From assembly GCA_964485625.1 (NCBI GenBank), contig CAZAJM010000001.1, positions 29,803-93,802 of the forward strand: a DNA stretch of 64,000 bases. The letters run 5' to 3'. Positions within the stretch are counted from its first letter, which is position 1; every line of letters starts with the position of its first letter. The stretch comes from an uncultured Candidatus Saccharibacteria bacterium (GTDB taxonomy: Bacteria; Patescibacteriota; UBA1384; JAGGWG01; CAZAJM01). This document shows, one piece after another, positions 22,064-53,900 of this stretch. The position numbers and the translations under genes were made by a program. The notes beneath the pieces are model-generated. The model was not told where the DNA came from, did no database searches, and was given only the letters and a program-made list of their open reading frames with translations.

Positions 22064-22105
22064 CCCGCCTGCCATCGCCTGCGGCTTAGCCAATGGCGGG
22101 CACGG
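22064..22105. repeat. GC-rich miniature repeat, copy A (CCCCGCCTGCCATCGCCTGCGGCTTAGCCAATGGCGGGCACGG)
   Basis: Member of the CCTGCCCGCC...GGCAGGCGGG family seen at five sites. Sits in an otherwise AT-rich intergenic region. A perfect GC palindrome CTCCCGCCGTGGCGGGAG lies at about 22163-22182. Confidence 0.6.
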
Positions 22106-22203
22106 CGCCCTCTGGCCTTCTCTTTTTGATAATATCAAAAAATAGATAGGTCACCCTCCCGCCGTGGCGGGAGAAAACATTGTGTTTTCCCGACCCCTTT
22201 CCT

Positions 22204-22313
22204 TGTTCAAATTCGCCCAGATCAAACACTGCCAAAATAAAACCGCCCTTAAAAGGGCGAACTTATTCTGGCGGACTCTACCGTATAAACTTTTAACTTT
22301 AGTGTTTGGGGTT
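22204..22313. repeat. 3'-flanking module copy 2 (paralogue of 20823-20930), including a minus-strand intrinsic terminator (hairpin 22244-22259 plus T-run)
   Basis: Same conserved box ggactctaccgtataaactt and flanks as copy 1. Hairpin CGCCC-TTAAAA-GGGCG flanked by an A/T run. Confidence 0.7.
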
Positions 22314-22378
22314 TAATAAAAAAGACCAGAAAAGACTCGGGAGAGGCCTAACTGGCCTTTAAGTTCTGGAGACTAGTG

Positions 22379-22939
22379 TTAGGAGGATTGCAGGCATTTT
22401 TTCTGAACATTATCAAAAAGGATAAACTGAAAGCCTTCAATTTCCCTAACGGGGAGAATGCTTTTAGACCGAAGTTGACTGATATGCTCCATATGTTCGG
22501 CGATGGGGCAGGACAGAGGGGAGCTATATCCTTCTAAAATACACATTCCATACTCACCACTGCCATCTTGGGTCTCGTTACCACAGATATATTCTTGTCT
22601 GCTGCTCTGGCTGAGTCTTTCACATTCTGGAAGTTCAATTATGGTATTTGAGTCATCTATCCGTAGTGCTTTGCTTTCAGGTAATTCTCCCCCTGTGTTT
22701 GCTCCGTCCCATTCGCTTTGGAAAGTACTAATAACATCTTCAGGCCTGTTTGCTTCGACTATACAGTGAGTTCTTTTTCTAGCAATCAGTGCCCTTCTGA
22801 TATTACTTGGGTCTAGCTCCTCTTTGTTGTCATATTTCACGAACAAGCCTACATTGTCTACAGCTATAATGATTTCATGAAAGCCATTAGTCCCAACTCT
22901 TGCAGATCTTTTCCATAAAGGCACTTGATAGAGTGGCAT
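22379..22939 (-). CDS. Hypothetical protein (orphan X2) in the tRNA-Asp-adjacent islet
   Basis: 186-aa ORF with an AGGAGG RBS and a strong upstream promoter. Cys-rich C-terminal half. No recognisable family. Not similar to X1 despite shared flanks. Confidence 0.5.
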   Translation of the reverse strand: MPLYQVPLWKRSARVGTNGFHEIIIAVDNVGLFVKYDNKEELDPSNIRRALIARKRTHCIVEANRPEDVISTFQSEWDGANTGGELPESKALRIDDSNTIIELPECERLSQSSRQEYICGNETQDGSGEYGMCILEGYSSPLSCPIAEHMEHISQLRSKSILPVREIEGFQFILFDNVQKKCLQSS

Positions 22940-22979
22940 GAGATATCTCCTCCTAATTTTGTGGTAGGTGCGTGAATTG

Positions 22980-23034
22980 ATGATAAATTAAACTTTAATT
23001 ATTTTCAACCTAAAAACCACCTTTTCAGGTGGCT
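22980..23034 (-). promoter_or_regulatory. Terminator-promoter module upstream of X2: minus-strand hairpin GCCACCTGAAAAGGTGG+T-run, then TTGAAA-N17-TATCAT
   Basis: -35 at 23008-23003, -10 at 22985-22980, hairpin at 23034-23013. Paralogous to the module at 21605-21658. Confidence 0.6.
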
Positions 23035-23056
23035 AGGGTAGAGTATAACTAAACTT

Positions 23057-23130
23057 CGGGGCTGACCGGATTTGAACCGGCGGTCTCCTGCGTGACAGGC
23101 AGGCGCTTTAAACCACTAAGCTACAGCCCC
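23057..23130 (-). tRNA. tRNA-Asp (anticodon GTC)
   Basis: Minus-strand sequence GGGGCTGTAGCTTAGTGGTTTAAAGCGCCTGCCTGTCACGCAGGAGACCGCCGGTTCAAATCCGGTCAGCCCCG folds as a cloverleaf. Anticodon loop is CTGTCAC. No encoded CCA. Confidence 0.85.
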
Positions 23131-23156
23131 AAAAATAAATTGTTAAAATTGATAAA

Positions 23157-23325
23157 CCCCATGTTCTCCAAGCCTCTTTAAGGATCTGAACCGGCTTGGT
23201 CTGTCCGGTGGACACCGGACCGCTTTAAACCACCCCGCCTGCCAAAGACTAAAGCTGGTGACCTGCCCGCTAGTGCCTGAGCACAGCAATGGCAGGCGGG
23301 TGGCGGGCAGGTAAGCTACAGCCCC
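23157..23325 (-). pseudogene. Degenerate tRNA-Asp-like copy interrupted in the D-loop by a 78-nt GC-rich repeat element (23234-23311)
   Basis: The minus strand begins GGGGCTGTAGCTTA (identical to the tRNA-Asp 5' end), then the 78-nt insert, then GTGGTTTAAAGCG (identical D-loop). It then diverges into a degenerate anticodon/T-arm (anticodon loop TGTCCAC lacks U33), and the acceptor 3' strand is not complementary. Confidence 0.55.
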
Positions 23326-23385
23326 ATACAATCAGATATAAGAAAAAGATACCACAGAATATCTCTTTTTTCAACCTCTAATAAT

Positions 23386-25299
23386 CTAATAGTTCTTTTT
23401 GAGGAGCTTATCAAGTTCAATTTCTGCAACACCAATTACCTTATCTGCTCCTCCGTAATATATTAATACCTTATCGTCTTTAAGTATTTTGCCACAAGGG
23501 AATACAACATTATTTACAAACCCTTCTTTTTCCCAATTTTCCGTTGGCTCGAGTATGGGATATTTACTTCTGTAGATTACTTCCTCTGGTCTTTCTAGGT
23601 CTAAGAGTAAGGTTCCCACCCTATACTGACCATCTTTACTACTAACACCATGATAGAGTACTAGCCAGCCTTTTTTGGTTTTTAGTGGGGTAGTGTTGAT
23701 GCCAATCTTCTTATCATCCCACATGCCTGCTCTAGGACCAATCATACCTTCTTTCTCTAACCACTCATTATCTTCAAATATTAGGTCGTCTAAGTAGTCT
23801 ATAGCGACCTCTCTACCTCCCACCCGGTGGAAGAGCAAGTATCTACCATTAATTTTTTCCGGGAAGAGACAGGCATCTTTATCGTCTGTGTTAGGGGGAG
23901 AGACTATTTTTGGCTCTGACCAGTTCCAATTCTTGCTATAGAAATCTTTTGTTTTAATATAGCTCATCGCTACTCTGGGTGGATTGACTCCATCAAAGGC
24001 AGTGTAGAGGAGGTAATATCTATCTCCAATTTTAGTAATTCTGGGATCTTCACAGCCTGAGAAGCAGTTTGGTTTTTTCTTCTTCTCAAAATCGGCTCTT
24101 GGAGTGTAGATTGGCTGATCGTATCTTTTAAAATTGTAACCGTCATTGCTAGTTGCCAGGCCAATAGTTGAGGTGTTGTTCTTTGAGAATGCCCGATAGA
24201 GCATATAGGTGGTGCCTTCATGTTCAACTGCGGCTGGGTTAAAGACTGCTTCAGCCTCCCAGTCATTTGTCTCTAATGGTTTTAGGATTGGGTTATGTTG
24301 GTACTTTTTTACCTTGAGTGCTTTTTTGACCTGGTTGTTTTTCATCTCTCGGAGTAGCTTCTCCACCCTTATACTCGCCCTAGCACAGTGGGTATCGGCA
24401 GCGCCATAGTAGATATCTATTGAACTATTGTTCTTGATTGCTCCACTTGGGAAGACGACATTTTTAATTACCCCCTCTCTTTCGTAGGGTTCTTCTGGCA
24501 GTAGGAGAGGATTGTCTGTTCGGGAGATTATCTTTTTAGGATTATTTTTATCTAATAAGACCGCTTCTATGCCAAATATTCGATCGTCGTGGTAGTAGTT
24601 TTTAATATGAGAGTAGATTAGTAGCCAGCCTTGTTCTAGCTCAATTGGCCTGGCTCCAATCTCTGTTTGATCGCTATTTAATCTTTTTAGATTGAGGGTC
24701 TTTTTATCTAAATTTTGATACCACTTCTGCCAAAGATCTTGATCCCACATCTCCTCAATTGTTTCAAAGCTTCTTAAGGCAGTTTTTGACGGAGGTAAGT
24801 CTGTGTTGGCTGAGAGGATAGATAAATATTTGCCATTCACTTTTTCTGGGAATAGCGTCATCGCCTTGGCGTTGAAGGGAGTTACTAGATGTTTCTCCTC
24901 AACTGTTTTTAGGTCTTTTGAGATTGCTAGACCAACTTTGATGCTATCTGGCCTGGGTGGCCAGGCAGAGAGAGCGGTATAGAAAATATAGTATTTGCTA
25001 TCTATTTTAGTGACTCTAGGGTCTTCACAGCCAAATAGGTCCCAGTTGGTGCTGGGAGCAATTAGTTGCATTGGAGTACTAAATTTTTTGCCGTCTTTGC
25101 TTCTGGTTATGCCAATAGTGGAGAGAGATAATTTCTGACCCTGAACCTCTATCTCATTTGAAAGAGCTCTAAAAAGAAGAACTGTTTTGTCATCTTTTTC
25201 TATAGCGCTAGGATTAAAAGTAGCTTGGGCCTGCCAAGCATCTTCTGGGTTAGGTGAGATTAGCGGATTGTTTTTACTTTTTTTTGCTAGGTTTGTCAT
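23386..25299 (-). CDS. Tandem two-domain GH130-like glycoside phosphorylase (beta-mannoside-phosphorylase family 5-bladed beta-propeller)
   Basis: Two copies of the GH130 core (FNPSAIEKDDKTVLLFRA...GITRSKDG and FNPAAVEHEGTTYMLYRA...GLATSNDG, each followed by CEDPR). 637 aa. Confidence 0.75.
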   Translation of the reverse strand: MTNLAKKSKNNPLISPNPEDAWQAQATFNPSAIEKDDKTVLLFRALSNEIEVQGQKLSLSTIGITRSKDGKKFSTPMQLIAPSTNWDLFGCEDPRVTKIDSKYYIFYTALSAWPPRPDSIKVGLAISKDLKTVEEKHLVTPFNAKAMTLFPEKVNGKYLSILSANTDLPPSKTALRSFETIEEMWDQDLWQKWYQNLDKKTLNLKRLNSDQTEIGARPIELEQGWLLIYSHIKNYYHDDRIFGIEAVLLDKNNPKKIISRTDNPLLLPEEPYEREGVIKNVVFPSGAIKNNSSIDIYYGAADTHCARASIRVEKLLREMKNNQVKKALKVKKYQHNPILKPLETNDWEAEAVFNPAAVEHEGTTYMLYRAFSKNNTSTIGLATSNDGYNFKRYDQPIYTPRADFEKKKKPNCFSGCEDPRITKIGDRYYLLYTAFDGVNPPRVAMSYIKTKDFYSKNWNWSEPKIVSPPNTDDKDACLFPEKINGRYLLFHRVGGREVAIDYLDDLIFEDNEWLEKEGMIGPRAGMWDDKKIGINTTPLKTKKGWLVLYHGVSSKDGQYRVGTLLLDLERPEEVIYRSKYPILEPTENWEKEGFVNNVVFPCGKILKDDKVLIYYGGADKVIGVAEIELDKLLKKNY

Positions 25300-26926
25300 C
25301 TTTTTTTATCTTGGCCGGCTCAATTTCCGGTTTACCGGTACTTTTTAGTTGACCTAAAAATTTATCTAAATTAGAGGTTGCTACACAGACATGAGAGTCT
25401 GCCCCACCATAGTAGACAAAGAGGGTATTATCAATTATGACCGCTCCGCAAGGATAGACTACTCCCGCCTTGAAGCCCTCGTTATCATACCACATATCTG
25501 GTTCAATTATGGGTGATTTTGAGCGGTAGAGTACCTTGGTAGGGTCCTCTAGATCGAGTAGCATAGCTCCAACTAAATACTTGCCACTATCTTTATCATC
25601 TACTGCTTGGTAAATTAGCAGCCAGCCCTCATCTGTTTTAAGGGGTGGAGCTCCGGCACCGATCTTACGGCTATCCCAGTACATATTCGATCTTGGTTGG
25701 ATCTTGTGCTCACCTTTAAGATACTGACCTCTTTTGAAATTAAGGCTATCGACAAAGTCTATCAGTATGTTTGGGAATATTCGATGGAAGATTACATATT
25801 TACCTCTAACCTTTTCCGGTAAGATGCAGGCGCTCTTGTCGACTACGCCTGGTGGGGAGATTAATATTGGTTTCTCCCAGAGCCAACGATGGCTTAGGAA
25901 GTCTTCTAAGCTAATTGAGGTTAGGGCTATCCTAGGTTCGCTATACCCGTCGAAGTGAACATAGGTCATATATACTCGGCCATCGATTATGGTTGCTCTA
26001 GGGTCTTCACAGCCTCCAAAGCCACCGCCTGAGACAAAGTCATAATTTATGTCTCTGTTGTGTTTATTAATATCTAGGCTCGCTCTAAAAGCTGGTTGAT
26101 CTAGGCGCTTATCTATATTAACTCCATCTTTGGAGCTGGCATAACCAACGGAGGAGATGTAATCATAGCCTTGGGCCCGGTAGAGAATATGGACCTCTCC
26201 TTGGGCATGGACGGCGGCAGGGTTGAAGGTGGTAAAGTTCTCCCACTCGTTCTCTTGCTTGGGAGTGATAAGAGGATTATTATCATGTTTGTCTATCTTC
26301 AATTCTTCTGCTTCTTTGGTAGCTAGGCCAATCTTAAAGCCCGGATAGATAGCAGCATAGATACCGCTTGTCTCTGAGTGCCAGTAGGAGATATATTGGC
26401 CTTGGTGGAAGATGGTGTTAATAAAGGTGTGTCTGTCTTTGCGCCAGGATTCCGGACTCTGCCAGATAGGATGTGAGTGTCGCCAGATAGGATTATCTTC
26501 GTTATCAAAAAGGAGAGCACCGATCTGGTAGTCTCCTTCATCGTTTTGGTAATGGTAGAAGAGCAGGTGACCGTGACTAGTCTGGAAAACGTTTTGAATA
26601 GAGATTTTATCTTGGTCGATATTCTCCGCTCCGGCAGCAATTTTTTCTTTGTATAGGTTTTTTAACTCTTCTCTTCTTTTAAAAATTCTCCTGGCTTTCT
26701 CTTCGACTGGCCGGTACTGACAGATCTCAAAATTAAAACCTTTCTTTGACTGGGCTAATGTGGTCTGGCCTCCCTCGTCTTTAAATGCTAAATATACTTT
26801 TTGATCTTCTTTAAAAACTGAAACATTTTGTTCAGGCAAACTTTCTGGCTCAGCCGACGATCTCTTGGCTGGTCTTTTTTTCTCCTTTTTTGGTTTCTTA
26901 CTTTTATTTATCCACTGCCAGAACAT
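25274..26926 (-). CDS. GH130-like glycoside phosphorylase with a K-rich N-terminal extension
   Basis: FNPAAVHAQGEVHILYRA...GYASSKDG...GGCEDPR core in the C-terminal half. Basic N-terminus. 3' end overlaps the downstream paralogue. Confidence 0.75.
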   Translation of the reverse strand: MFWQWINKSKKPKKEKKRPAKRSSAEPESLPEQNVSVFKEDQKVYLAFKDEGGQTTLAQSKKGFNFEICQYRPVEEKARRIFKRREELKNLYKEKIAAGAENIDQDKISIQNVFQTSHGHLLFYHYQNDEGDYQIGALLFDNEDNPIWRHSHPIWQSPESWRKDRHTFINTIFHQGQYISYWHSETSGIYAAIYPGFKIGLATKEAEELKIDKHDNNPLITPKQENEWENFTTFNPAAVHAQGEVHILYRAQGYDYISSVGYASSKDGVNIDKRLDQPAFRASLDINKHNRDINYDFVSGGGFGGCEDPRATIIDGRVYMTYVHFDGYSEPRIALTSISLEDFLSHRWLWEKPILISPPGVVDKSACILPEKVRGKYVIFHRIFPNILIDFVDSLNFKRGQYLKGEHKIQPRSNMYWDSRKIGAGAPPLKTDEGWLLIYQAVDDKDSGKYLVGAMLLDLEDPTKVLYRSKSPIIEPDMWYDNEGFKAGVVYPCGAVIIDNTLFVYYGGADSHVCVATSNLDKFLGQLKSTGKPEIEPAKIKKDDKPSKKK

Positions 26927-27096
26927 AATACTTCCTTAATAAAACTATTATTACCATTTTAACATATCGGCTAAACTAAGGGCAAATATTATTAGCTAAA
27001 ATTATATATATTTGACCATCTAATCTGGCTTTTTTAGGTATTTTCTGATAGTTTGATAGAGTAATAGCTTCTTATTTACTAAATACTTTTAAAGCA

Positions 27097-28728
27097 ATGT
27101 CTTTCTACGACGAGCCCTATCCAAACAAAAGACTCTATGAGATTATCCCCGCAAGTGTTAGTTGGTCTATTTTACTTACTCCGATAGTACTTTCTTTTTT
27201 AAGGCCGACATATATCGCCATCTTTATGATCCTTTTCGATCTCTACTGGTTGCTAAAGGCGGTATATATGGGTTCTAGGTTAATAACAGGTTACTTGCAT
27301 ATGAAAAGAGAGACTAAGATCAACTGGCTCTCTCGGCTTAAGGAATTAGAAGACTTTGATCATCATTACAAGGTGGTTAGAGAGAGTTTGGAAAATGCTC
27401 AAGGTTGGTGGCAGAGAAGGTATTTTAGAAGAGAGCTAGATCAACTGAAAGCCATTAAGTCTCGGCAGAACTTACTTAAAGATTGGAACGAGGTCTACCA
27501 TGTAGTAATGCTGCCAACCTACAAAGAGCCTTATGAGGTTCTAGCAAAATCTATACGGGCCATAGATAAGAGTTTCTATCCTAACAAAAAAATGATTGTT
27601 GTCTTGGCTCTAGAAGAGAGGGCTGGCAAAGAAAGAGTAGATTTAGGCAACAAGTTAAAAGAGGAGTTTGGAAATTTGTTCAAAGAGTTTCTCATCACAG
27701 TCCACCCCGATGGCATAGAGGGTGAGCTTAAGGCTAAAGGGGCTAATGTTACTTGGGCTGGTAAGAGAGTGAAAGAATATATTGATGATCAAGAAGATAT
27801 TAACTACGAAGATGTAATCGTCTCGGCCTTTGACTGTGATACTAGGCCCTCGCCTCAGTACTTTGCCTCTCTAACCTACAAGTATGTTACCAACCCCAAC
27901 CGGCTTAGGAGATCGTTTCAGCCGATCCCTATATTTGCCAATAACATTTGGGATATACCTCTAATTAATAGATTGGTCTCCTTCGGCTCCACTTTCTGGC
28001 AAGTGATTGAGTCGACCAGGCCCTGGCACTTGGTTAATTTTTCCTCGCAGGCGATGAGCTTAAAGACATTAATAGATATTGATTACTGGGATACAGGTGT
28101 GGTTAGTGAAGACTCTAAGCAGTACTATCGAGCTTTCTTTAAATTTAAGGGTGATCATCAATGTATCTCTATTTTTACCCCAGTCTATATGGATGCTATG
28201 CAGGGTCAGAACTTCTGGCAGGCCTTAATTAATCAGTATAAGCAGAAAAGACGTTGGGCTTGGGGAGTGGAACATATTCCTTACCTGCTAAGAGAGTTGC
28301 CAAAGTACAAGGAGATATCGCTTTGGCAGAGATGGGTAATTTTCTACCGGGTCTTCGATGCTCATGTCTCTCAAGCTACAGCCTCACTTTTGATTGCTTT
28401 TGCTGCTTGGATGCCGCTGCTTCTAAACCCTGGCTTTAGAGATACCGTTCTTGCCTACAACTTGCCCTATATGGCTCGGGTTTTGCTAGGCATCTCTTGG
28501 ATCGGTATTATCGTCTCTGGTTTTGTCTCGGTGCTCTTACTAACTCAGATTCCAAGAGGTAAAATCAATAGGGTAAAATATATTACTACTTTTGGTATGT
28601 GGTTTTTAGTTGCTCTCTCGGCCCTTTTCTTCGGCTCTATACCAGCCTTAGAATCTCAGACTAGATTGATGCTGGGCAAGTACCTAGGTTTCTGGGTTAC
28701 TCCTAAAGAGGCTAGCAGGACTAGTTAA
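27097..28728 (+). CDS. Processive family-2 glycosyltransferase (cellulose/chitin-synthase-like) integral membrane protein
   Basis: DCD (SAFDCDTRP), SEDSK (TED-like) and QKRRWAWG (QxxRW) motifs. TM helices at both ends. 543 aa. Confidence 0.7.
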   Translation: MSFYDEPYPNKRLYEIIPASVSWSILLTPIVLSFLRPTYIAIFMILFDLYWLLKAVYMGSRLITGYLHMKRETKINWLSRLKELEDFDHHYKVVRESLENAQGWWQRRYFRRELDQLKAIKSRQNLLKDWNEVYHVVMLPTYKEPYEVLAKSIRAIDKSFYPNKKMIVVLALEERAGKERVDLGNKLKEEFGNLFKEFLITVHPDGIEGELKAKGANVTWAGKRVKEYIDDQEDINYEDVIVSAFDCDTRPSPQYFASLTYKYVTNPNRLRRSFQPIPIFANNIWDIPLINRLVSFGSTFWQVIESTRPWHLVNFSSQAMSLKTLIDIDYWDTGVVSEDSKQYYRAFFKFKGDHQCISIFTPVYMDAMQGQNFWQALINQYKQKRRWAWGVEHIPYLLRELPKYKEISLWQRWVIFYRVFDAHVSQATASLLIAFAAWMPLLLNPGFRDTVLAYNLPYMARVLLGISWIGIIVSGFVSVLLLTQIPRGKINRVKYITTFGMWFLVALSALFFGSIPALESQTRLMLGKYLGFWVTPKEASRTS

Positions 28729-28794
28729 ATAAAAAAGAACGCTAAAATTAGAAAATCATATTAAGCTATGATAACCTAAATAGCGTTTTTTAAA

Positions 28795-29337: not shown

Positions 29338-29412
29338 TCTTCTTCCTCCTTATCAAGCTGCGTTTAGTCCCTATAGCTTAACTGATTTATTTAATATTTC
29401 AAGAGCCTGTTT

Positions 29413-30945: not shown

Positions 30946-30992
30946 GCCCTCCACCTATCATCGTCTGCGGCTTCAGTTGTTGGCAGGCGGGG
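30946..30992. repeat. GC-rich miniature repeat, copy C (degenerate left arm; ...CATCGTCTGCGGCTTCAGTTGTTGGCAGGCGGGG)
   Basis: The core GCGGCTTCAGT(T/C)GTTGGCAGGCGGG is nearly identical to copy E at 53845-53886. Confidence 0.55.
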
Positions 30993-44161: not shown

Positions 44162-44172
44162 AAGATGATTTA

Positions 44173-46068: not shown

Positions 46069-46142
46069 GGTGACCGACGGGAATCGAACCCGCATCGCCG
46101 ACGCCACAGGTCGGAGTTCTAAGCCATTGAACTACGGCCACC
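46069..46142 (-). tRNA. tRNA-His (anticodon GTG) with encoded G-1
   Basis: Minus strand reads G-GTGGCCGTAGTTCAATGGC...CCGACCTGTGGCGTCGG...GGGTTCGATTCCCGTCGGTCAC-C. An 8-bp acceptor stem including G-1:C73 is the hallmark of tRNA-His. Confidence 0.8.
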
Positions 46143-46150
46143 ATAAATAT

Positions 46151-46501: not shown

Positions 46502-46516
46502 GAATTAGGGTTAATT

Positions 46517-47398: not shown

Positions 47399-47457
47399 TA
47401 GCTATATTATATCAGAAAAAAAAGGAGGTTCATAATTGAACCCCTATAACTACCTTG

Positions 47458-47532
47458 TGGAGCGGGTGACGGGGGTCGAACCCGTATTGCGAGATTGGAA
47501 ATCTCGAGTAATAGCCATTATACCACACCCGC
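47458..47532 (-). tRNA. tRNA-Gly (anticodon TCC) with encoded CCA
   Basis: Minus strand GCGGGTGTGGTATAATGGCTATTACTCGAGATTTCCAATCTCGCAATACGGGTTCGACCCCCGTCACCCGCTCCA. Anticodon loop TTTCCAA. Confidence 0.8.
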
Positions 47533-47625
47533 GCGTCCGCTAAATTTGTTCTAAAACTGACTTAATCCAGCCCATAATTTTACGATGTAATTTTACACCA
47601 AGGTCCGGGTTATTGCAAGCCTTGG

Positions 47626-48546
47626 CTAATATGATTTTCTCTCCCAAGCACTATTAACTAAGGTCTTTAAGAACTCTTTGAATGAGTAACCGGCTGCTTG
47701 AGCTGATTTGGGCAGTAAGCTTTCATCTGTCATGCCCGGGATTGTGTTGATCTCTAAAATATATGGTCGGTCTTCATTATCTACCATAAAATCAACCCTA
47801 GCAAAATCTCTGGCTCCGACTAGCTTGAATACTTTTTTGGCTAGTTTCTGAACCTGTTTGGCTAGTTTCTTATCAATTGGTGCCGGTACTATCTCTTCTG
47901 TGCTACCATCATATTTAGCCTGATAATCAAAGAAGCCATTTTTAGGTACTATCTTAATAACGGCTAGGGCTTTAGTCTCTCCTGTTTCTTCCATCACTCC
48001 TACGGTTAGCTCCATGCCTTTAATCTCTTCTTCAATATGAACAATATCATCAAACTCAGAAGCTTCTCTAACTGCTTCTTTTAAGGTTTTACTGTCTTTA
48101 GCCAGACTTACTCCTAGACTAGAACCCTCTTTGTTGGGTTTGATAAACCAAGGCGGATTAAAGCTAGGTAGAGTTATTGGTTTGTTCTTGTTTACCAGTT
48201 TAGTCTTAGGGTAGGGCAGACCTTCAGACTTTAAAAGTTTTTTAAATACTTTTTTGTCAATGCCAATGGCTGAGGCTAGTACTCCAGAGCCGATATATGG
48301 AATATTTAGTAGTTCTAAAAAACCCTGGATTGTCCCATCTTCTCCTAGCCGACCGTGGAGTATAGGGAAGGCTATGTCGATACTATCTTTATCATCAATT
48401 AATTTCTCTAAATCATCTTTGGGATCATAGACCTCTAGATTAAACTCGTCTTTTAGGGCTTTTTCTACCTGTTGGCCTGACTTTAAAGAGACCTCTCTTT
48501 CTCTAGAGACACCACCATAAATTAGAGCTAAGTTAATGTTTTTCAT
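47626..48546 (-). CDS. ddl: D-alanine--D-alanine ligase
   Basis: MKNINLALIYGGVSREREVS N-terminus. ATP-grasp central domain, EINTIPGMT C-terminal motif. The track ORF extends to 48621 and would overlap the upstream gene, so the Met at 48546 is preferred. Confidence 0.85.
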   Translation of the reverse strand: MKNINLALIYGGVSREREVSLKSGQQVEKALKDEFNLEVYDPKDDLEKLIDDKDSIDIAFPILHGRLGEDGTIQGFLELLNIPYIGSGVLASAIGIDKKVFKKLLKSEGLPYPKTKLVNKNKPITLPSFNPPWFIKPNKEGSSLGVSLAKDSKTLKEAVREASEFDDIVHIEEEIKGMELTVGVMEETGETKALAVIKIVPKNGFFDYQAKYDGSTEEIVPAPIDKKLAKQVQKLAKKVFKLVGARDFARVDFMVDNEDRPYILEINTIPGMTDESLLPKSAQAAGYSFKEFLKTLVNSAWERKSY

Positions 48547-49276
48547 AACCGGTAAAGTTCTCTGATTTGATATTGGCATCGTTGACTCCGGCTTTTTTGA
48601 CTTCTTTCTCGACTGCTCCAACCATGCCTGGTGGGCCGGCTATCATGAAGTAGTAGTTGTCTAATTTGGTAAAGTAATCTGTTATAAACTCTTTGTCTAT
48701 TCTCCTGCTCTCCTCTTGCCACTTATTTGATGAGGTCATAGTAAAAATTACATTCAGATTATCCATCTGATCGTTGAGTTCTTTTAGTCTATCAAAGTAT
48801 ACAGTCGACTCTTGGTCTCGGTTGGAGTAAACAAGTTCTATCTCATAGTCTAGGTTTTGGTTTTTAACATGCTCAATCATTGACTTAAAAGGTGTGATAC
48901 CAATGCCCCCAGCGATAAAGACTAGAGTTTTATCGATTTTACCCGGCAGAGTAAAAGTGCCGGCGACATTATCTATCTCCACCTCTTCTCCAATTTCAAG
49001 TTTCTCCAAGGCCTGTTTGTACGGACTACCTGTTAGGCGGGTGGCCATAGTGATGGTTTGGCTGTTTTCAGGCGGGTTGACAATAGAGAAATGTTTACGG
49101 TTCCCTCCTTTAATTTCTTTGAACATGCGCAAGAAAAAGTACTGGCCGGCCTCAAAGTCAATTTTTTTCTCAAGCTTAAAAGTAAGCTCTAAGGTTCTTT
49201 TGGCAACTAGATTTTTGTTTTTCAGCTTTGCTTTCATATTTAAGATTATTATCTCAATTTGACCGTCTTCTGTCAA
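48533..49276 (-). CDS. Ferredoxin-NADP(+)-reductase-like FAD/NAD(P)-binding oxidoreductase
   Basis: RxFS FAD motif (RKHFSIVN) and GGIGITP NAD(P)-binding motif. 247 aa; the start may be the Met at 49237. Confidence 0.65.
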   Translation of the reverse strand: MTEDGQIEIIILNMKAKLKNKNLVAKRTLELTFKLEKKIDFEAGQYFFLRMFKEIKGGNRKHFSIVNPPENSQTITMATRLTGSPYKQALEKLEIGEEVEIDNVAGTFTLPGKIDKTLVFIAGGIGITPFKSMIEHVKNQNLDYEIELVYSNRDQESTVYFDRLKELNDQMDNLNVIFTMTSSNKWQEESRRIDKEFITDYFTKLDNYYFMIAGPPGMVGAVEKEVKKAGVNDANIKSENFTGYEKH

Positions 49277-49356
49277 TTGACTAATAATTTCTAGGTAATA
49301 TCATTAACAAAGTAGCGTAGCTTGACATGTAGTGCAGTGAGGAAGGAGGAGTGAGG

Positions 49357-49950
49357 ATGGCTGGTGAAGGTGTAGCTTTAAGACATTGTTTGGGATTATT
49401 TGATCTGAGTATAGAAGATCTTTTTGTGATAAAGCGCAATAAAGAGAAAACTGACCCAGATGTATTGAGTAAATTCGCAAAATTTTTGAGTTGGTTAAGC
49501 AGACACTTCATTAGTTTTACCAGTGAAGATGGGAAAAAAGATTGCAATGATGAAGATTTTGCTTTCCGAATGAATGTTTTTGTTTCTTTAGTGAGGCTGG
49601 CCCCTCAGGGAAGGTGTATTGGTTTTGGTGGTGTGGTTAATCAAATAGAAGAAGAGCTGGATCATGATGGTAGTATATCTAGCAGGGTGATAAGTATAGC
49701 TATTGGAAGACTGACTAAGAGATATGAAGATAGTAGTAAGGGGGTAAGTCCTTCTAAAATGAGAGAATTTGTTCAAAATTTAATTATTGTTTATGCTGTA
49801 TTTAGGTATCTTAAGAGTTTTTTTTATCCATTAAGAAGTATTAACGAGATTGAAGAAAGTGAAAAAAAGAAGTTAATTCTAAAAATGATTGCCTTAATAA
49901 ATGCACTACTAGAAGGAGCTGGTTTATCGACGTCGCTTTTTAAAGGGTAG
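49357..49950 (+). CDS. Hypothetical protein
   Basis: ORF preceded by a GGAGGAG RBS. No motif. Confidence 0.4.
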   Translation: MAGEGVALRHCLGLFDLSIEDLFVIKRNKEKTDPDVLSKFAKFLSWLSRHFISFTSEDGKKDCNDEDFAFRMNVFVSLVRLAPQGRCIGFGGVVNQIEEELDHDGSISSRVISIAIGRLTKRYEDSSKGVSPSKMREFVQNLIIVYAVFRYLKSFFYPLRSINEIEESEKKKLILKMIALINALLEGAGLSTSLFKG

Positions 49951-49986
49951 TATGCCCAATATTTAGCCGCGTCTTTTTTTTAACAA

Positions 49987-51156
49987 TTACCTAATTTTAT
50001 CAATCTTTCTTTTGGAGAACTTTTTGGCAAATCGGTGGGCTTCGTCTCTTACTTTCTGAAAAACTCTCTTGTTGCCTTTAATAATCTTTTTTAGATCTTT
50101 GTCTAGGTTTTTAAAGATAAGCTTATCTTTATTATCCCTGCCTTTAGCTAGGCCTACTACGGGTATACCCAAGCTATTTTGTTTGACTATCTGGAAAGCT
50201 TGATTTACCTGGCCTCTACCGCCATCAATTAGAATAATATCAGGAAAGGGCCACTCATTGTGCTTGACTCTTCTAGCTAGAACCTCTTTTAGAGCGCCAA
50301 CATCGTCTTTTTGTTTGGCCTTTTTTATCTTAAAAAGCCGATAATCTTGCTTGCTTGGTTTATTGTTCTCAAAAACTACCATCGAGCCGTATGTTCCTTT
50401 GCCGGCAAAATGAGATATATCATAACCCTCTATTCTCATAAACTCAGTCGCTAGGTGTTCGCCAATACTTTCTCTGCTAATTAGAGCACTGTCTCGGACT
50501 TGTTTTAAACTCTCTATTTTTTCCGGATTTCCTTTTTTCAATCTTTTGTAAAGCCTCTTCTTCTCCCCTCTTAAGAATAGACGCAGGTTTTTAATGTTTC
50601 TTTGGTACTCTTGCTTGCTAACACTATCTGTACAAGCGCCGGGGCAGAGTCCAATCTGGCTATGAAAACAAGGTCGACCTAAATCTGGCTTATTACAATA
50701 GGGGAAAATTTTTCTAAGCATCTCTAGAGCATCTCTGGCAATACTATAGGTTCTATATGGCCCAAAAATGCTAAAGTTTCGGCTAGGATATTTTTTGATA
50801 AACTGCCCTCTAATAATGAAGGGGGCCGGGTAATCTTGGTAATTTAGTTTCGGGATAGCGATATAGGCAAAAGATTTATTGTCTTTACCTTTAACATTAA
50901 AAAATGGCCAATGTTTTTTGATTAGATTAGTTTCCAACATCAACGCTTCCAGAACAGAGTCAGAAACGATATGATCTATTTTGCTAGATTGATTAAGTAG
51001 TTGCTGGACCTTGCTGTTATCGTTGTAGAAATAGCTCATTACCCGGCTACGTAAGTTGCCAGCTTTGCCAATATAAAGGATATCTTCTTTTGATTTAAAG
51101 AGATAGACTCCTGGCTTCTCAGGTAAATTTTTGGCTTGTTCTTTTAAAGTTTTCAT
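49987..51156 (-). CDS. uvrC: Excinuclease ABC subunit C, compact form (GIY-YIG + RNase-H-like endonuclease; no UVR or (HhH)2 region)
   Basis: GIY-YIG N-terminus (GVYLFKSKEDILYIGKAGNLRSRV). C-terminal IDGGRGQV motif (cf. E. coli IDGGKGQL). Only 389 aa. Confidence 0.8.
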   Translation of the reverse strand: MKTLKEQAKNLPEKPGVYLFKSKEDILYIGKAGNLRSRVMSYFYNDNSKVQQLLNQSSKIDHIVSDSVLEALMLETNLIKKHWPFFNVKGKDNKSFAYIAIPKLNYQDYPAPFIIRGQFIKKYPSRNFSIFGPYRTYSIARDALEMLRKIFPYCNKPDLGRPCFHSQIGLCPGACTDSVSKQEYQRNIKNLRLFLRGEKKRLYKRLKKGNPEKIESLKQVRDSALISRESIGEHLATEFMRIEGYDISHFAGKGTYGSMVVFENNKPSKQDYRLFKIKKAKQKDDVGALKEVLARRVKHNEWPFPDIILIDGGRGQVNQAFQIVKQNSLGIPVVGLAKGRDNKDKLIFKNLDKDLKKIIKGNKRVFQKVRDEAHRFAKKFSKRKIDKIR

Positions 51157-51171
51157 ATTCTATCAATATTC

Positions 51172-51241
51172 GGTATTCGGAAGTCCGACCCGCCTGCCAA
51201 AGACTGAAGCTTTGCTGATGGCGGGCAGGCTTCCGAATATT
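51172..51241. repeat. GC-rich miniature repeat, copy D, nested inside the hairpin arms ATTCGGAAG...CTTCCGAAT
   Basis: attcggaagtccgacCCGCCTGCCaaagactgaagctttgctgaTGGCGGGCAGGcttccgaat. The core is the reverse-complement orientation of copy E. Confidence 0.6.
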
Positions 51242-51282
51242 ATTAATGATTTAATAGTAATTTATCAGGTTGTGTACAAAAT

Positions 51283-51309
51283 CGGAAGTCCGACTTCCGA
51301 TTTTAGGAA
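51283..51309. terminator. Perfect 13-bp-stem palindrome AAAATCGGAAGTC-CGA-GACTTCCGATTTT just 3' of uvrA; probable bidirectional intrinsic terminator and core-less relative of repeat D
   Basis: Inverted repeat read directly from the sequence. A/T runs on both sides. Confidence 0.6.
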
Positions 51310-53822
51310 AGTTCTTTTTTTAGGTATTTGGCGGTCTCTGATTCGTCGGTGTATTTGGCCACCTCTTTAGGTTGGCCTTCTACTACAACTTTGCCGCCTG
51401 ATTTGCCGCCATCCGGGCCTAAGTCGATTATCCAGTCGGCATTTTTAATTACATCTAAATTATGCTCAATAACCATGACTGAGTTGCCTCGATCAACCAG
51501 GGACTGAAGGACTTCTAGCAGCATCTCGACATCGTAGTAGTGTAGGCCGACGGTCGGTTCATCTAGCAAGTAGAGAGTATTACGTGAGTTTTTGGTAAGC
51601 TCTCTGGCTAGTTTAAGTCTTTGAGCCTCGCCGCCTGAAAGAGTGGTGGCAGACTGGCCTAGTTCTAAATAGCCCAAACCTACTTCTTTGAGCATTAGCA
51701 GCTTTTCGCTAATAGTTGGAATATCTTTAAAGAAACTGTAGGCCTCATCTATAGTCATCTTAAGTACTTGAGCGATATTCTTAGCTTCATATTTAATCTC
51801 AAGTGTCTCTTTGTTAAACCTCTTGCCTTTACAGATCTCACACTCTACTTCGACAGAAGGGAGAAAGTGAAGCTCAACCTCTTTGTAACCGGCTCCACTA
51901 CAAGCCTGGCATCTGCCCGCGTCGACATTAAAAGAGAATCTAGATTTAGAGTAACCTCTCTCTCGGCTAGCCTCTTGGTTGGCAAAGAGATCTCTAATTG
52001 GAGTGAAGGCACCTGAGTAAGTAGCAGGATTGGAGCGGCTCGATCGGCCGATTGGTGATTGATTGATCTCGACCATATTAACTAGCCTCTCACTGCCCTC
52101 AATTTTGCTCAAATTTGTAAGTTGGGGGTGATTGCCGGGGTCTTTCTTGAAGTACTTTGGTAGGTTCTTGGTAATAGTTTTAAAGAGGGTCGATTTGCCT
52201 GAGCCCGATACCCCAGTCAGAGTAACTAATTTACCTAAAGGCAACTCAATATCAATGTTTTTTAGGTTGTTGGCCGTGGCCCCTTTAAAAATTAGCTTAT
52301 CTTTAACTTTGGTTCTAACCTTATCTGTTTCTATCTCTTTCTTGCCTCTTAGATAGTTGAGAGTTAAAGTGGCTTCTTCTGAGTTTAAAAGCTCTTTGAC
52401 CTTACCACTGCTAACAATCTCGCCGCCCTGCTTGCCCGGGCCCGGGCCTAGATCGACTAGATAATCTGATTGTCTGATCACATTTGGATCATGTTCTACC
52501 ACAATAACGGTGTTGCCCAGATCTCGAATATTTTTTAAAGTGTTCATCAACCTGTTAGTATCACGGGCATGGAGACCGATGGTCGGCTCATCTAGAATGT
52601 AGAGAGCACCAGAGAGTTTAGAGCCCATTTGAGAAGCCAGTCTAATTCTTTGAGCTTCACCGCCAGCCAATGTTCCGGCCTTTCTGTCTAAGTTAAGATA
52701 GTCTAGCCCAACCTCTTCTAGAAAAGTTAGCCGAGAAATAATCTCTTCTAGTAGGTTATAGGCGATTTCAAACTGGGAGTTTTCTAGCTTGTTGGATAAC
52801 TTAGTAAAAAATTCCCCGGCCTGTTTAATAGTTAGGCTAGTAATCTCATCGATATTTTTACCTTCAATTTTAACCGATAGGGCTTCTTTGGAGAGCCGCT
52901 TGCCTTTACAGTCTGGGCAAGGTTTATCTGACCATTTATGAGTAGTGCCTAAACCCTCGCAAGTTGGGCAGGCGCCAAAAGGTGAGTTAAAAGAGAAGAG
53001 TCGGGGCTCAATTTCGGGGAAGGAGAAACCGTCTTTGGGACAGGTTCGTGAGGTTGAGAGCATCAGCTCCTTGGCTAGTTTTCCTCGATGGTCATCGGTG
53101 TAGTAGAGAACATTGACCAAGCCTTCAGAGAGCTCAATTGCCATCTCGACTGCCTCAAATAGTCTGGTCTGATCGACCATGTCGAGCTGATCGACTACAA
53201 TTTCAATAGTGTGGTTTTTGTAGCGTTCTAATCTAATTTGGTCATGTAGGCTGGCAAACTCACCATCGATGCGTGCCTCGTCAAAGCCTTTATTTAAGTG
53301 ATCATATAGTAGTTGATAATAGTCTCCTTTTCTACCTAAAACAACCGGGGAGGTAATGACCATCCGTTTGGCCTTAGACTCCTTGAAGTTTGTTTTTATG
53401 ATATCGACCATTTCGTCTGTAGATAGCTTCTCTATCTCATCGCCACATTCTAAGCAATATGGTTTACCAATCCGGGCATAGAGCACCCTCAAGTAGTCAT
53501 ATATCTCAGTTAAGGTAGCGACATTTGACCTAGGGTTGGAGGACATTGCTTTTTGGTTGATTGCTATAGCTGGGGAGAGGCCACTAATCTCATCTACTTC
53601 GGGTTTTTTCATCTCTCCCAGAAACTGCCGGGCGTAAGGAGAGAGAGATTCAATGTACCTTCTCTGGCCTTCGGCAAAGATAGTATCGAAAGCTAAAGAC
53701 GATTTACCCGAACCGGAGACTCCGGTAACGGCAATAATCTTATTTTTAGGCAGCTTAAGATCGATGTTTTTTAAGTTATGCATCCTAGCCCCTTTTATTG
53801 TAATAGTATCTTTTTCACTCAT
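51303..53822 (-). CDS. uvrA: Excinuclease ABC subunit A
   Basis: Two ABC modules (GVSGSGKSSLAF, GVSGSGKSTL) and zinc-finger CxxC pairs. 839 aa, shorter than the ~940-aa canonical form. Confidence 0.95.
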   Translation of the reverse strand: MSEKDTITIKGARMHNLKNIDLKLPKNKIIAVTGVSGSGKSSLAFDTIFAEGQRRYIESLSPYARQFLGEMKKPEVDEISGLSPAIAINQKAMSSNPRSNVATLTEIYDYLRVLYARIGKPYCLECGDEIEKLSTDEMVDIIKTNFKESKAKRMVITSPVVLGRKGDYYQLLYDHLNKGFDEARIDGEFASLHDQIRLERYKNHTIEIVVDQLDMVDQTRLFEAVEMAIELSEGLVNVLYYTDDHRGKLAKELMLSTSRTCPKDGFSFPEIEPRLFSFNSPFGACPTCEGLGTTHKWSDKPCPDCKGKRLSKEALSVKIEGKNIDEITSLTIKQAGEFFTKLSNKLENSQFEIAYNLLEEIISRLTFLEEVGLDYLNLDRKAGTLAGGEAQRIRLASQMGSKLSGALYILDEPTIGLHARDTNRLMNTLKNIRDLGNTVIVVEHDPNVIRQSDYLVDLGPGPGKQGGEIVSSGKVKELLNSEEATLTLNYLRGKKEIETDKVRTKVKDKLIFKGATANNLKNIDIELPLGKLVTLTGVSGSGKSTLFKTITKNLPKYFKKDPGNHPQLTNLSKIEGSERLVNMVEINQSPIGRSSRSNPATYSGAFTPIRDLFANQEASRERGYSKSRFSFNVDAGRCQACSGAGYKEVELHFLPSVEVECEICKGKRFNKETLEIKYEAKNIAQVLKMTIDEAYSFFKDIPTISEKLLMLKEVGLGYLELGQSATTLSGGEAQRLKLARELTKNSRNTLYLLDEPTVGLHYYDVEMLLEVLQSLVDRGNSVMVIEHNLDVIKNADWIIDLGPDGGKSGGKVVVEGQPKEVAKYTDESETAKYLKKELS

Positions 53823-53833
53823 GATATTTATCT

Positions 53834-53900
53834 AAATCGGAAGGCCTGCCCGCCATTGCCTACGGCTTCAGTCGTTGGCAGGCGGGTTACCTTCAGAATT
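53834..53900. repeat. GC-rich miniature repeat, copy E (CCTGCCCGCCATTGCCTACGGCTTCAGTCGTTGGCAGGCGGG at 53845-53886), flanked by TCGGAAGG/CCTTCAGA partial inverted arms
   Basis: Sits in the 45-nt uvrB-uvrA intergenic spacer. Termini CCTGCCCGCC/GGCAGGCGGG. Confidence 0.6.

Follow-up and report, generated by a model that had tools for sequence, protein, structure and literature searches.

GC-rich hairpin insertions in a Patescibacteria genome: a probable REP/RPE-like element with a candidate GIY-YIG partner nuclease

The window analysed here is a 64,000-nt stretch of DNA from a tiny-genome Patescibacteria (CPR) bacterium, and it contains six copies of a GC-rich hairpin repeat at five places. The element is a GC-rich imperfect palindrome of 39-45 nt, typically ~42 nt, with the ends CCTGCCCGCCA...TGGCAGGCGGG, exact at both termini. 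We found six occurrences of the exact 11-mer TGGCAGGCGGG in the window (22064-, 23234-, 23290+, 30981+, 51189-, and 53876+). With up to two mismatches there are 22 matches, compared to 5.9±2.5 in shuffled sequences, and 0 of 100 shuffles reach 22. A profile made only from 93 independent metagenome copies recovered precisely the six copies (E from 6e-11 to 0.02); a partial match at 55432-55455 within uvrB was not significant (E=1.2). All five sites given in a preliminary description of this DNA are present. The copies are 63-74% GC compared to 39.8% for the window, so the GC-richness described earlier (65-70% in a 38% background) stands with corrected values. The arms are the conserved parts of the repeat; the core GCGGCTTCAGT-GTTGGCAGGCGGG, previously taken as common to all copies, is present in only two to three of those in the window. 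Both orientations occur, also relative to transcription, and the RNA folds are very stable on either strand. The copies differ from one another by ~15-25% and therefore show no sign of a recent burst. Five of the six lie in the loops of existing hairpins. None is inside a gene body.

Two copies lie at the junctions of uvrB, uvrA, and uvrC. The first, CCTGCCCGCCATTGCCTACGGCTTCAGTCGTTGGCAGGCGGG (53845..53886, + strand, 42 nt; profile E=6e-11), occupies the uvrB/uvrA junction and contributes the stop codon of uvrB (TGA) together with the 6 codons before it; its RNA fold, at -24 kcal/mol (z=-4.1), exemplifies the very stable hairpins obtained for the copies. It sits in the loop of a host "TCGGAAG" hairpin (53834..53899; arms AAATCGGAAGG and CCTTCAGAAT, loop TTA), the composite folding at -31 kcal/mol (z=-4.2). 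The second copy (51189..51229, 41 nt, forward on the - strand; E=1e-8) lies in the uvrA/uvrC spacer, between the loop and the 3′ arm of a second TCGGAAG hairpin, ATTCGGAAGTCCGA ... CTTCCGAAT (51175..51238; composite fold -34 kcal/mol, z=-5.5). A further TCGGAAG hairpin, AAAATCGGAAGTC-C-GACTTCCGATTTT (51278..51304; -14.9 kcal/mol, z=-5.4), overlaps the uvrA stop codon, is unoccupied, and served as the empty-site reference for the two occupied hairpins. This is the core-less palindrome AAAATCGGAAGTCCGACTTCCGATTTT, earlier misplaced at 51283-51309, and what had been counted as three copies in the uvr spacers are two GC copies and this empty hairpin.

In relatives whose UvrA is 86%, 75%, and 76% identical, the uvrB|uvrA gaps are 5, 0, and 55 nt and hold no hairpin, and uvrA and uvrC overlap by 8 nt, also without a hairpin. 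The uvrB|uvrA|uvrC junctions of close relatives are tight and hairpin-free, which shows that the uvr copies are insertions. The 53845 copy is absent in three relatives (L128, L129, and L130), the entire ~70-nt block at 53834..53899 is an insertion compared to relatives, and the empty hairpin belongs to an insertion of ~150 nt missing from them. UvrB, which ends in ...ELTNKGDK* in relatives, ends in ...ELTKKTNSEGNPPAND* in the window. The visible effects of the window copies are longer uvrB|uvrA|uvrC junctions, an 11-residue new UvrB tail, and very stable RNA hairpins, and the copies appear to have no demonstrated host function.

Two more copies are nested at a tRNA-Asp locus. An intact tRNA-Asp(GTC) gene (23056..23131, - strand) lies directly downstream of a tRNA-Asp pseudogene (23160..23325, - strand), which comparison with the intact gene identifies as a degenerate tandem duplicate. 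ARAGORN makes no call on this pseudogene, even with the hairpins excised. The outer copy (23234..23311, split into 23234-23261 and 23301-23311, - strand) is in the D-loop of the pseudogene, with the precise insertion point GCTTA|GTGG, and once the block is taken out, the pseudogene matches the intact tRNA-Asp exactly over its first 27 nt. The inner copy (23262..23300, + strand, 39 nt; E=6e-3) is in the loop of the outer one, directly 5′ of its 3′ arm, as judged against the uninterrupted 51189 copy. The block had been read as a single copy. It had also been said that all copies are intergenic, which does not hold for this block in a tRNA-Asp pseudogene or for the 53845 copy that ends uvrB. The copy at 30946..30991 (+ strand; E=8e-4), between two unknown genes on the - strand and listed in the preliminary description like the others, is decayed: its 5′ arm is degenerate, and only the core and the 3′ arm are preserved. 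The remaining copy (22064..22105, - strand; E=1e-9) has the arm variant CGTGCCCGCCA, is flanked by an 8-bp host stem, and lies 124 nt upstream of a GIY-YIG nuclease pseudogene (21689..21940, - strand, 83 codons). This pseudogene was found by tblastn and matches Pfam PF01541; it has an in-frame TAA at codon 37 (21830-21832), and its translation with the stop replaced gives E=2e-17.

The repeat is not restricted to the window, and the family is widespread in Patescibacteria. We observe it in at least 120 metagenome contigs, with hosts of Paceibacteria, Saccharibacteria, and Levybacteria type, Paceibacterota and Saccharibacteria MAGs among them, and copies in independent JGI, ENA, Logan, and NCBI assemblies; the closed genome CP066689.1 carries related variant hairpins of the same superfamily. 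Sequence comparison shows that the copies are insertions, absent from orthologous, paralogous, and homologous sequences. No target-site duplication was found in 115 copies among the matches listed or at three cases with exact boundaries (the tRNA-Asp pseudogene, the nested copy, and LeuRS), and no conserved target tetranucleotide was found at the copies. Copies lie in loops of existing DNA hairpins more often than chance, for example in terminators, in a tRNA D-arm, in TCGGAAG hairpins, or in another copy; among the matches listed, 7 of 115 are flanked by perfect stems of 8 bp or more versus ~0.5 expected. A strong flanking host hairpin is present in only ~10% of the metagenome copies among these matches, and the bias could reflect survival in insertion-tolerant loops rather than targeting. 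Copies within 150 nt of a tRNA number 7 of 115 (~4 expected), again among the matches listed.

About 20% of family copies are within long ORFs, and the length of these copies is nearly always a multiple of three. Counting a copy as read through when the ORF extends for at least 60 codons on each side of it, we found 25 such cases among the 117 copies in the matches listed. Among these matches, 23 of the 25 coding copies have a length divisible by three compared to 29 of 55 non-coding copies (Fisher p=8e-4). The ORF-embedded copies have no stop codon in the host frame and are read through as 13-15 added residues, and the hairpins are read in all six frames. The host genes include those for IF2, RadA, Mfd, and LeuRS. 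The RadA copy precedes the Walker A motif, and in a Levybacteria-type LeuRS the copy lies at CDKC|GWQ, where removal of 42 nt restores CDKCGWQ as in homologs.

In sequence context, superfamily hairpins accompany a 78-aa GIY-YIG nuclease gene, a link that is a correlation. The gene sits immediately 5′ of tRNA genes, and the hairpin splits a 5′ remnant of the same tRNA. The nearest solved relatives of the protein, by PDB matches, are UPF0213 proteins and the structure-specific endonuclease SLX1, and the GIY-YIG residues Y5, Y16, G18, R26, H30, and E62 (alignment numbering) are invariant in a 5-sequence alignment. In a hairpin-centred set, 4 of 6 GIY-YIG genes are ≤205 nt from a copy (p=2e-3). 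A nuclease-centred set covers 31 kb in 7 independent contexts; of its 9 hairpin sites, 7 are ≤25 nt from the ORF (P=1.6e-7), and a hairpin is present in all 6 leftover tRNA 5′ fragments. On viral contigs, 2 of 6 further GIY-YIG loci (L162 and L165) have a superfamily hairpin, or a short palindrome related to it, that separates the ORF region from a complete or fragmentary tRNA, and at L167 such palindromes lie in tRNA-like pieces downstream of the GIY-YIG ORF. The window pseudogene, the only GIY-YIG gene there, is a member of this family. By association, the window holds two units, a decayed one made up of the GIY-YIG pseudogene and the copy at 22064, and one without an ORF that consists of the tRNA-Asp pseudogene, hairpins, and intact tRNA-Asp, the latter an arrangement of broken tRNA 5′ part with hairpin followed by intact tRNA that is also seen at other CPR loci.

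We consider it probable that the hairpins are a selfish, non-autonomous element of REP/RPE type that spreads by insertion and belongs to a CPR-wide superfamily, which is associated with the GIY-YIG nuclease and may be mobilised by it in trans. The putative nuclease would cut hairpin or cruciform DNA, and hairpin copies would be installed at the breaks it makes, by analogy with what RAYT is thought to do in trans for REP. Points against this include the decayed state of the window's only GIY-YIG gene, the divergence among window copies, the small share of metagenome copies with a strong host hairpin, the location of most solo hairpins away from tRNAs, and the near-identical arms across CPR classes, for which this reading does not account. 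It is possible, though we think rather unlikely, that the hairpins are mobile and have another mover, an unseen Y1/RAYT-type transposase or template-switching at palindromes, with the nuclease-adjacent hairpins being regulators or survivors in neutral hairpin-forming tRNA fragments. HUH/Y1 single-strand transposition (IS200/IS605, REP/RAYT) leaves no target-site duplication and uses hairpin ends, traits compatible with the CPR copies. Most solo copies are also far from GIY-YIG genes, and hairpin subfamily has no obvious co-variation with nuclease sequence. In T4, regulatory hairpins lie directly upstream of homing-endonuclease genes, segB among them (PMC2988022), and by analogy the CPR hairpins could instead regulate expression of the nuclease gene. 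However, the hairpin position in the tRNA fragment is variable (after positions 0-22) and often >15 nt from the GIY-YIG start codon, and the geometry is therefore unlike RBS sequestration. Moreover, a conserved target tetranucleotide is lacking, and every broken tRNA fragment of the nuclease-centred set is occupied, yet many other hairpins of the window are not. A search for RAYT had been proposed; none of the 57 window ORFs has a Y1/transposase domain, and the small GIY-YIG nuclease is a different candidate partner.

Functions as terminator, attenuator, or mRNA stabiliser had been suggested, and we regard it as improbable that the hairpins are intrinsic terminators, attenuators, RNase processing sites, or mRNA stabilisers kept for regulation. 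The stability of the folds on either strand, the two window copies at operon junctions, and family members with T runs (L004, T9) or within bidirectional terminators (L031, L068) agree with such roles. As the reason for the copies they are unsupported: no window copy is followed by a T-tract, and a consensus terminator scan flags 0 of 6 copies, yet flags other hairpins nearby. Copies are found in both orientations, one of those in the window has decayed, the uvr genes of close relatives overlap or are tightly spaced and lack the hairpins, and ~20% of family copies are in frame within ORFs, essential genes included. That copies in genes are removed from the RNA like introns or bypassed by the ribosome could explain such strong hairpins within conserved motifs of essential proteins (RadA, LeuRS), but it is very improbable given the lengths divisible by three and absent in-frame stops described above; by hand count, excision joins the frames in 3 of 8 copies of other lengths with long flanking ORFs, which is chance level. 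That the motif is a DNA-uptake or protein-binding sequence accumulated by point mutation, or an assembly artefact, is hardly credible even though the same arms occur in many genomes and CPR bacteria are believed to rely on taking up DNA, since it is already contradicted by clean insertions relative to homologous sequences, by copies in independent assemblies, and by variant hairpins in a closed genome.

The selfish-element reading has parallels in several known systems. GC clusters of yeast mitochondrial DNA and the GC-rich palindromes or double-hairpin elements of fungal mtDNA are short mobile elements of an AT-rich reduced genome, found in spacers, beside tRNA genes, nested, and occasionally in frame in genes. 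The CPR hairpins share these traits of mobility and location, whereas sequence and host are unrelated, and to our knowledge no nuclease partner is established for the mitochondrial clusters. Bacterial MITEs (Correia, ERIC, Chunjie, QMITE) are likewise small non-autonomous hairpin-forming insertions that can enter operons, but they have terminal inverted repeats and target-site duplications and are IS-derived, usually AT-rich, and >100 bp (PMC10969869), whereas the CPR hairpins are GC-rich and ~42 nt. The earlier label "REP/MITE-like" is therefore right as to the kind, small palindromic insertions absent at orthologous sites; they are not strict MITEs, as target-site duplications are absent and no parent IS turned up, and they depart from REP on two counts, as ~20% of copies are within ORFs and copies occur singly or nested rather than as inverted REPIN doublets. 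Like REP/REPIN with RAYT (PMC3116915, PMC3337134), they are short GC-rich imperfect palindromes, many in number, non-autonomous, without target-site duplication, and tied to one small nuclease-type gene that has the repeat on its own flanks. Unlike REP/REPIN, they have no GTAG-like 5′ tetranucleotide and also occur outside extragenic DNA, their partner candidate is a tRNA-tied GIY-YIG nuclease with no Y1/HUH gene found, and their arms are near-identical across classes of the superphylum where REP is species-specific. Rickettsia palindromic elements (RPE; PMC10969869) are also palindromic selfish DNA of a reduced genome, with insertions in non-coding DNA, in RNA genes, and, in frame, in protein genes that are unrelated to one another and can even be essential; however, RPE are ~100-150 bp and encode a recognisable peptide, in contrast to 39-45 nt read in six frames, and no sequence similarity of the CPR hairpins to RPE was found.

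The candidate nuclease resembles free-standing GIY-YIG homing endonucleases such as T4 SegB in a tRNA gene cluster (PMC2988022, PMC13096335), in that a GIY-YIG ORF is wedged beside tRNA genes with a hairpin just upstream. Unlike SegB, the CPR protein is a ~78-aa catalytic domain only, without a DNA-binding domain and closest to UPF0213/SLX1, its ORF lies next to a duplicate of the neighbouring tRNA's 5′ part, and its hairpin also has many solo copies elsewhere in the genome. CPR rRNA genes are reported to contain uncharacterised short ORF-less insertions, most of which sit where a stem-loop begins or at its tip (base or top), and non-intron insertions that carry GIY-YIG ORFs (PMC11270868); that paper concerns the same organisms and describes no palindromic repeat family, tRNA fragments, or coding-region copies. 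We conclude that the CPR hairpin is probably a REP/RPE-like selfish element with a candidate new partner enzyme, which may move it in trans.

The repeat unit is an imperfect palindrome of about 42 nt, which in its forward form reads CCTGCCCGCCA, a variable core of 16-24 nt, and TGGCAGGCGGG. Using a profile built from 93 copies from other metagenomes only, with the window copies left out, we recovered exactly six copies in the window: 53845-53886 (+), 22064-22102 (-), 51189-51229 (-), 30959-30991 (+), 23262-23300 (+), and a split copy at 23234-23257/23294-23311 (-) that encloses the preceding one. Element lengths in the profile search range from 38 to 45 nt. A seventh profile match, inside uvrB (55432-55455), is a chance match (E=1.2, not significant). 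The exact 3′ arm also occurs six times, and at ≤2 mismatches it gives 22 matches vs 5.9±2.5 in shuffled sequence, with none of 100 shuffles reaching 22. The repeats exist as the preliminary description reported them, with small corrections. The main ones are that its single copy at 23234-23311 is a nested pair, and that the core-less palindrome that it placed at 51283-51309 lies at 51278-51304.

The copies are 63-74% GC vs 39.8% for the window. Their arms are 11 nt each and pair with one fixed T·G pair and one fixed C·A mismatch, so that the two strands of the hairpin can be distinguished; the core is variable and forms an inner stem in most cases. RNA folding of each copy, suggested earlier as a check, yields strong structures of -24 to -42 kcal/mol alone or with flanks, and z-scores reach -5.5 for copies nested in TCGGAAG hairpins. 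Orientation is balanced, with 3 vs 3 in the window and 14 vs 11 in ORFs among the copies listed. At gathering score, Rfam found only tRNAs in the window, and a permissive Rfam scan of 21.5-23.45 kb found nothing besides tRNA-Asp and a chance sRNA match.

At the level of sequence comparison, the copies are shown to be insertions whose ends are exact and which lack a target-site duplication. In contigs of three relatives (UvrA 86%, 75%, and 76% identical), the uvrB-uvrA gaps are 5, 0, and 55 nt and uvrA and uvrC overlap by 8 nt. Both the GC hairpin and the TCGGAAG hairpin are absent from these junctions, and no GC hairpin copy occurs anywhere in the 36.9 kb fetched from the relatives. The window carries an extra block of ~70 nt at uvrB-uvrA and of ~150 nt at uvrA-uvrC. 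The UvrB C-terminus has changed from ...ELTNKGDK* to ...ELTKKTNSEGNPPAND*, with the stop codon now within the hairpin. The earlier claim that all copies are intergenic holds in that no window copy lies inside a gene body, but it fails for uvrB, whose 3′ end is formed by one copy. The TCGGAAG hairpin was also considered as a second genome-wide family and rejected, as its occurrences are confined to the two uvr junctions and the heptamer is about as frequent as chance predicts.

Next to tRNA-Asp lies a degenerate tandem duplicate of it, the "pseudo-tRNA". With 23234-23311 removed, its first 27 nt are identical to tRNA-Asp, which places the insertion exactly between GCTTA and GTGG of the D-loop. 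ARAGORN called no tRNA here after excision of the hairpins with 81 boundary variants, so the duplicate is a true pseudogene. Within the nested pair, the outer copy is interrupted exactly where its loop meets its 3′ arm, and the inner copy occupies this position. Altogether, five of the six window copies lie in hairpin loops, the hosts being two TCGGAAG hairpins (a third is empty), another copy, the tRNA D-arm, and an 8-bp stem. Among the matches listed, perfect flanking stems of ≥8 bp surround 7 of 115 copies vs ~0.5 expected, and these cases include obvious bidirectional terminators (locus L031; L-numbers denote loci or contigs fetched from other genomes, metagenomes or viral contigs). A T-purine preference at positions -2/-1 before the element is weak. 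General proximity of solo hairpins to tRNAs was weak as well (7/115 vs ~4 expected, among the matches listed) and was set aside.

The family is not restricted to the window. With a loop-specific pattern we located the element in a Paceibacterota MAG, where it is also nested, and in a Saccharibacteria MAG, and an arms-only pattern found it in at least 120 metagenome contigs from groundwater and sediment; three viral contigs matched the arms-only pattern. Some of these copies are coding: among the matches listed, ORFs continue through 25 of 117 distinct copies, with ≥60 codons on either side. Their length is divisible by three in 23 of 25 cases vs 29 of 55 clearly non-coding copies (Fisher p=8e-4; among the matches listed). 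The host genes include IF2, RadA, Mfd, and LeuRS, and the copies are read in all frames and both orientations, which would yield peptides such as ARLPSSRGEASGGQ. In a Levybacteria-type LeuRS the DNA reads TGTGATAAATGCG, 42 nt, GTTGGCAG; the insertion is exact, and excising the 42 nt yields CDKCGWQ as in homologs. We found no support for splicing or bypass among the ORF-embedded copies.

CPR LeuRS proteins range from 805 to 1134 aa (L075 4067-6748; homologs P0122, P0138, and P0187). Other LeuRS inserts are of low complexity and resemble translated repeats (SGQAGQA, VIASEAKQSN/IASLPEAPSSRGG, IRSTSSGQE, KSKIKNQKSKI), and they suggest that several repeat families populate CPR coding regions. In two viral contigs (L005 1459-1503 and L006 3252-3296) we observed a compound copy with each arm doubled, laid out as CCTGCCCGCC gaaca CCTGCCCGCCA gggct TGGCAGGCGGG aattctt TGGCAGGCGGG, which looks like a minimal 27-nt hairpin nested within another.

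Among known systems, REP-like selfish DNA is a sound assignment; the preliminary description had likened the repeats to REP/MITE-like elements. Like REP/REPIN-RAYT repeats, the element is a short palindrome (20-40 nt in REPs) with stable folds and many copies, here six in 64 kb. REPs, however, are extragenic only, whereas this family occurs in long ORFs (25/117 among the matches listed), has inserted exactly into LeuRS, and forms the uvrB 3′ end. REPINs move as inverted doublets, whereas we find singletons or nested copies and no regularly spaced inverted pairs. REPs also have a Y1/HUH RAYT gene flanked by the repeat. The preliminary description proposed a search for an associated transposase; in the window, Pfam/NCBIfam searches of the 57 ORFs ≥100 aa found no transposase, integrase or Y1/HUH domain. 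IS200/IS605 PATEs insert 3′ of a fixed tetra- or pentanucleotide without target-site duplication and have hairpin ends and a Y1 TnpA. The hairpin ends and lack of duplication of the element fit this pattern, its T-purine preference is only weak, and the window ORFs searched include no Y1 gene. Rickettsia palindromic elements (RPEs) insert in frame in protein genes, as does this family (the window copies do not, the uvrB tail excepted), but RPEs span ~100-150 bp and encode a conserved peptide, whereas the hairpins are far smaller and have no conserved peptide. MITEs carry terminal inverted repeats that match a parent IS and are flanked by target-site duplications. The GC hairpin is itself a palindrome, its 2-5 nt direct repeats are at chance level (among the 115 copies listed), and three exact empty/filled comparisons reveal no duplication. 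In the 0.9 Mb of fetched loci, what lies between arm pairs spaced by 100-4000 nt is ordinary genes, Mfd among them, and no convincing parent element. The behavior is REP-like (PMC3116915) and RPE-like (PMC10969869), yet defining features of each are missing. The regulatory functions also proposed earlier found no support: intrinsic terminators combine a GC stem-loop with a T-tract downstream of a sense gene, a pattern that none of the six window copies fits, their flanks being free of T runs and a consensus terminator scan flagging none of them while flagging other hairpins in the same regions. The literature searched contained no description of the motif in this context or of a CPR palindromic repeat family, and no reported link between GIY-YIG proteins and REP-like repeats.

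The hairpins are statistically associated with a tRNA-linked GIY-YIG nuclease gene. In the window, the 22064 copy is followed 124 nt downstream by a GIY-YIG ORF (21689-21940, -), a pseudogene interrupted by an in-frame stop codon. The 0.9 Mb of loci fetched through hairpin matches contain only six GIY-YIG genes, four of them within 205 nt of a copy (p=2e-3). Three of these loci (L002 Lys, L100 Met, and L045 Thr) share one architecture: a tRNA 5′ fragment split by the hairpin, the GIY-YIG ORF, and an intact tRNA of the same identity. Starting instead from the protein family, which has >7,700 homologs, the named ones from CPR lineages, we found the architecture in five of seven independent contexts: L131 Thr (two fragments), L135 Gln, L144 Asn (in the closed Roizmanbacteria genome CP066689.1), L150 Ile, and L159 Asn. 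At L146 Lys the hairpin abuts the tRNA 5′ end, and at L153 it is 205 nt away. An objective GC-hairpin scan of this nuclease-centered set placed seven of nine superfamily sites ≤25 nt from the ORF (P=1.6e-7), and all six leftover tRNA fragments carry a hairpin. Hairpins of the window family itself occur near the nuclease at L002, L100, and L150 and as the inner copy in L159; others are close variants (CCCGCCCGC..., CCGCGCCCGCC...).

In viral contigs L162 and L165, the ORF is separated from a tRNA or tRNA fragment by a hairpin or short palindrome, and a related 20-nt palindrome family occurs in viral-contig GIY-YIG loci. Short perfect palindromes of a second family (CCTGCCTGCCGGCAGGCAGG, CCTGCCTGTCGGCAGACAGG, CCTGCCTACCGGTAGGCAGG) sit in tRNA fragments beside GIY-YIG genes at L165 ~480-560 and L167 ~255-345, on contigs classed as viral. 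Versions without the ORF, in which a broken tRNA with a hairpin is followed by an intact tRNA, are found in the window, L112, L113, and L013. At L013 1337-1709 and L113 975-1348 an intact tRNA-Thr (GGT) lies inside a broken tRNA-Thr, which carries GC hairpins in the D- and T-loops in L013 and one in the D-loop in L113. The interrupted tRNA of L112 was considered as a split functional tRNA and rejected, as it is a 5′ fragment only. At L025 513-904, a hairpin element holds an entire tRNA-Glu in its loop.

The GIY-YIG proteins are 78-86 aa long, match PF01541 with E from 1e-15 to 1e-20, and have invariant catalytic columns (Y, Y-x-G, R, H, E). Among solved structures, the closest to them are those of UPF0213 proteins and of SLX1, a structure-specific endonuclease. 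Free-standing GIY-YIG homing endonucleases likewise have intact catalytic motifs (the window gene being a pseudogene), but they gain specificity from a separate DNA-binding domain, whereas the CPR proteins consist of the catalytic domain only. Homing cassettes cleave the ORF-less allele and spread by gene conversion; what can be read from these loci is a static architecture beside tRNA genes.

We infer a mechanism in which the nuclease would cut hairpin or cruciform DNA and hairpin copies would be installed at the resulting breaks, much as RAYTs are supposed to serve REPs. In a broader reading, possible if rather unlikely, the GC hairpins and the 78-aa tRNA-linked GIY-YIG nuclease form an undescribed two-component selfish system of CPR bacteria. 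Here the DNA that is cut would also include tRNA genes, in their D- and T-arm regions. A cassette of the nuclease gene and a functional tRNA 5′ part (or whole tRNA) would displace the resident tRNA and leave hairpin-marked tRNA wrecks behind. Throughout the superphylum, terminators, operon junctions, and essential genes (these in frame) would receive hairpins through the same activity. In a more speculative variant, the hairpin and flanking tRNA fragment would guide the nuclease. Alternatively, the hairpins beside the nuclease gene may regulate that gene, as hairpins do at the homing-endonuclease genes T4 segB and I-TevI (PMC2988022), or another, unseen enzyme may move the hairpins.

The window encodes short-form uvrB, uvrA, and uvrC, GH130 enzymes, glycosyltransferases, and RuvABC, among others, and the closest named UvrA homologs are from Patescibacteria/Paceibacterota; a search for an identical UvrA protein found none on record. 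The uvr products (49987-55748) are UvrB 626, UvrA 839, and UvrC 389 aa vs models of 653, 943, and ~600; UvrB lacks the C-terminal UVR domain region of its model, and relatives share the short lengths. A tandem duplication (20823-21658 and 22203-23033) comprises a gene without family matches (ORFs 20970-21563 and 22379-22939), its flanks, and a terminator, with the GIY-YIG pseudogene ahead of one unit and tRNA-Asp ahead of the other. At the window edge, the tRNA-Arg(TCG) 3′ end plus 21 nt (63821-63861) recurs 139 nt downstream (63960-64000) at 95% identity, with a small hairpin, GGGCTTTAAGCCC, before it, and may be another broken-tRNA remnant or an attachment-site duplication. A diversity-generating retroelement at 58232-60880 comprises a target ORF (58232-59068, +), a candidate VR (58945-59054) and TR (59417-59526) of 110 nt that are 85% identical, a bAvd ORF (59545-59964, -; PF22296), and a reverse transcriptase (59885-60880, +; PF00078). 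A 1183-aa ORF (8949-12500), which contains repeats of a glycine-rich GGTGGTGG-type segment and weakly matches an Ig-like domain, adjoins a lamin-tail-domain protein, and both are probably surface proteins.

The hairpin family is real. Although CPR/Patescibacteria genomes are among the smallest of bacteria, they accommodate a mobile hairpin, through which tight operons become longer, protein termini are altered, and proteins including IF2, RadA, Mfd, and LeuRS gain 13-15 internal residues. Part of the protein length variation and low-complexity inserts of CPR bacteria may be due to this element. A study of CPR rRNA genes reported uncharacterized short insertions at stem-loops together with GIY-YIG ORFs (PMC11270868); these may be related to the family, and the short rRNA insertions might come from the element. 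As markers, the hairpins could reveal recent genome change, and they could also give rise to annotation errors. The association also offers a testable candidate enzyme, not a tyrosine transposase, for a REP-like element, and the repeated occurrence of a nuclease gene together with a broken and an intact tRNA suggests that selfish cassettes are replacing tRNA genes.
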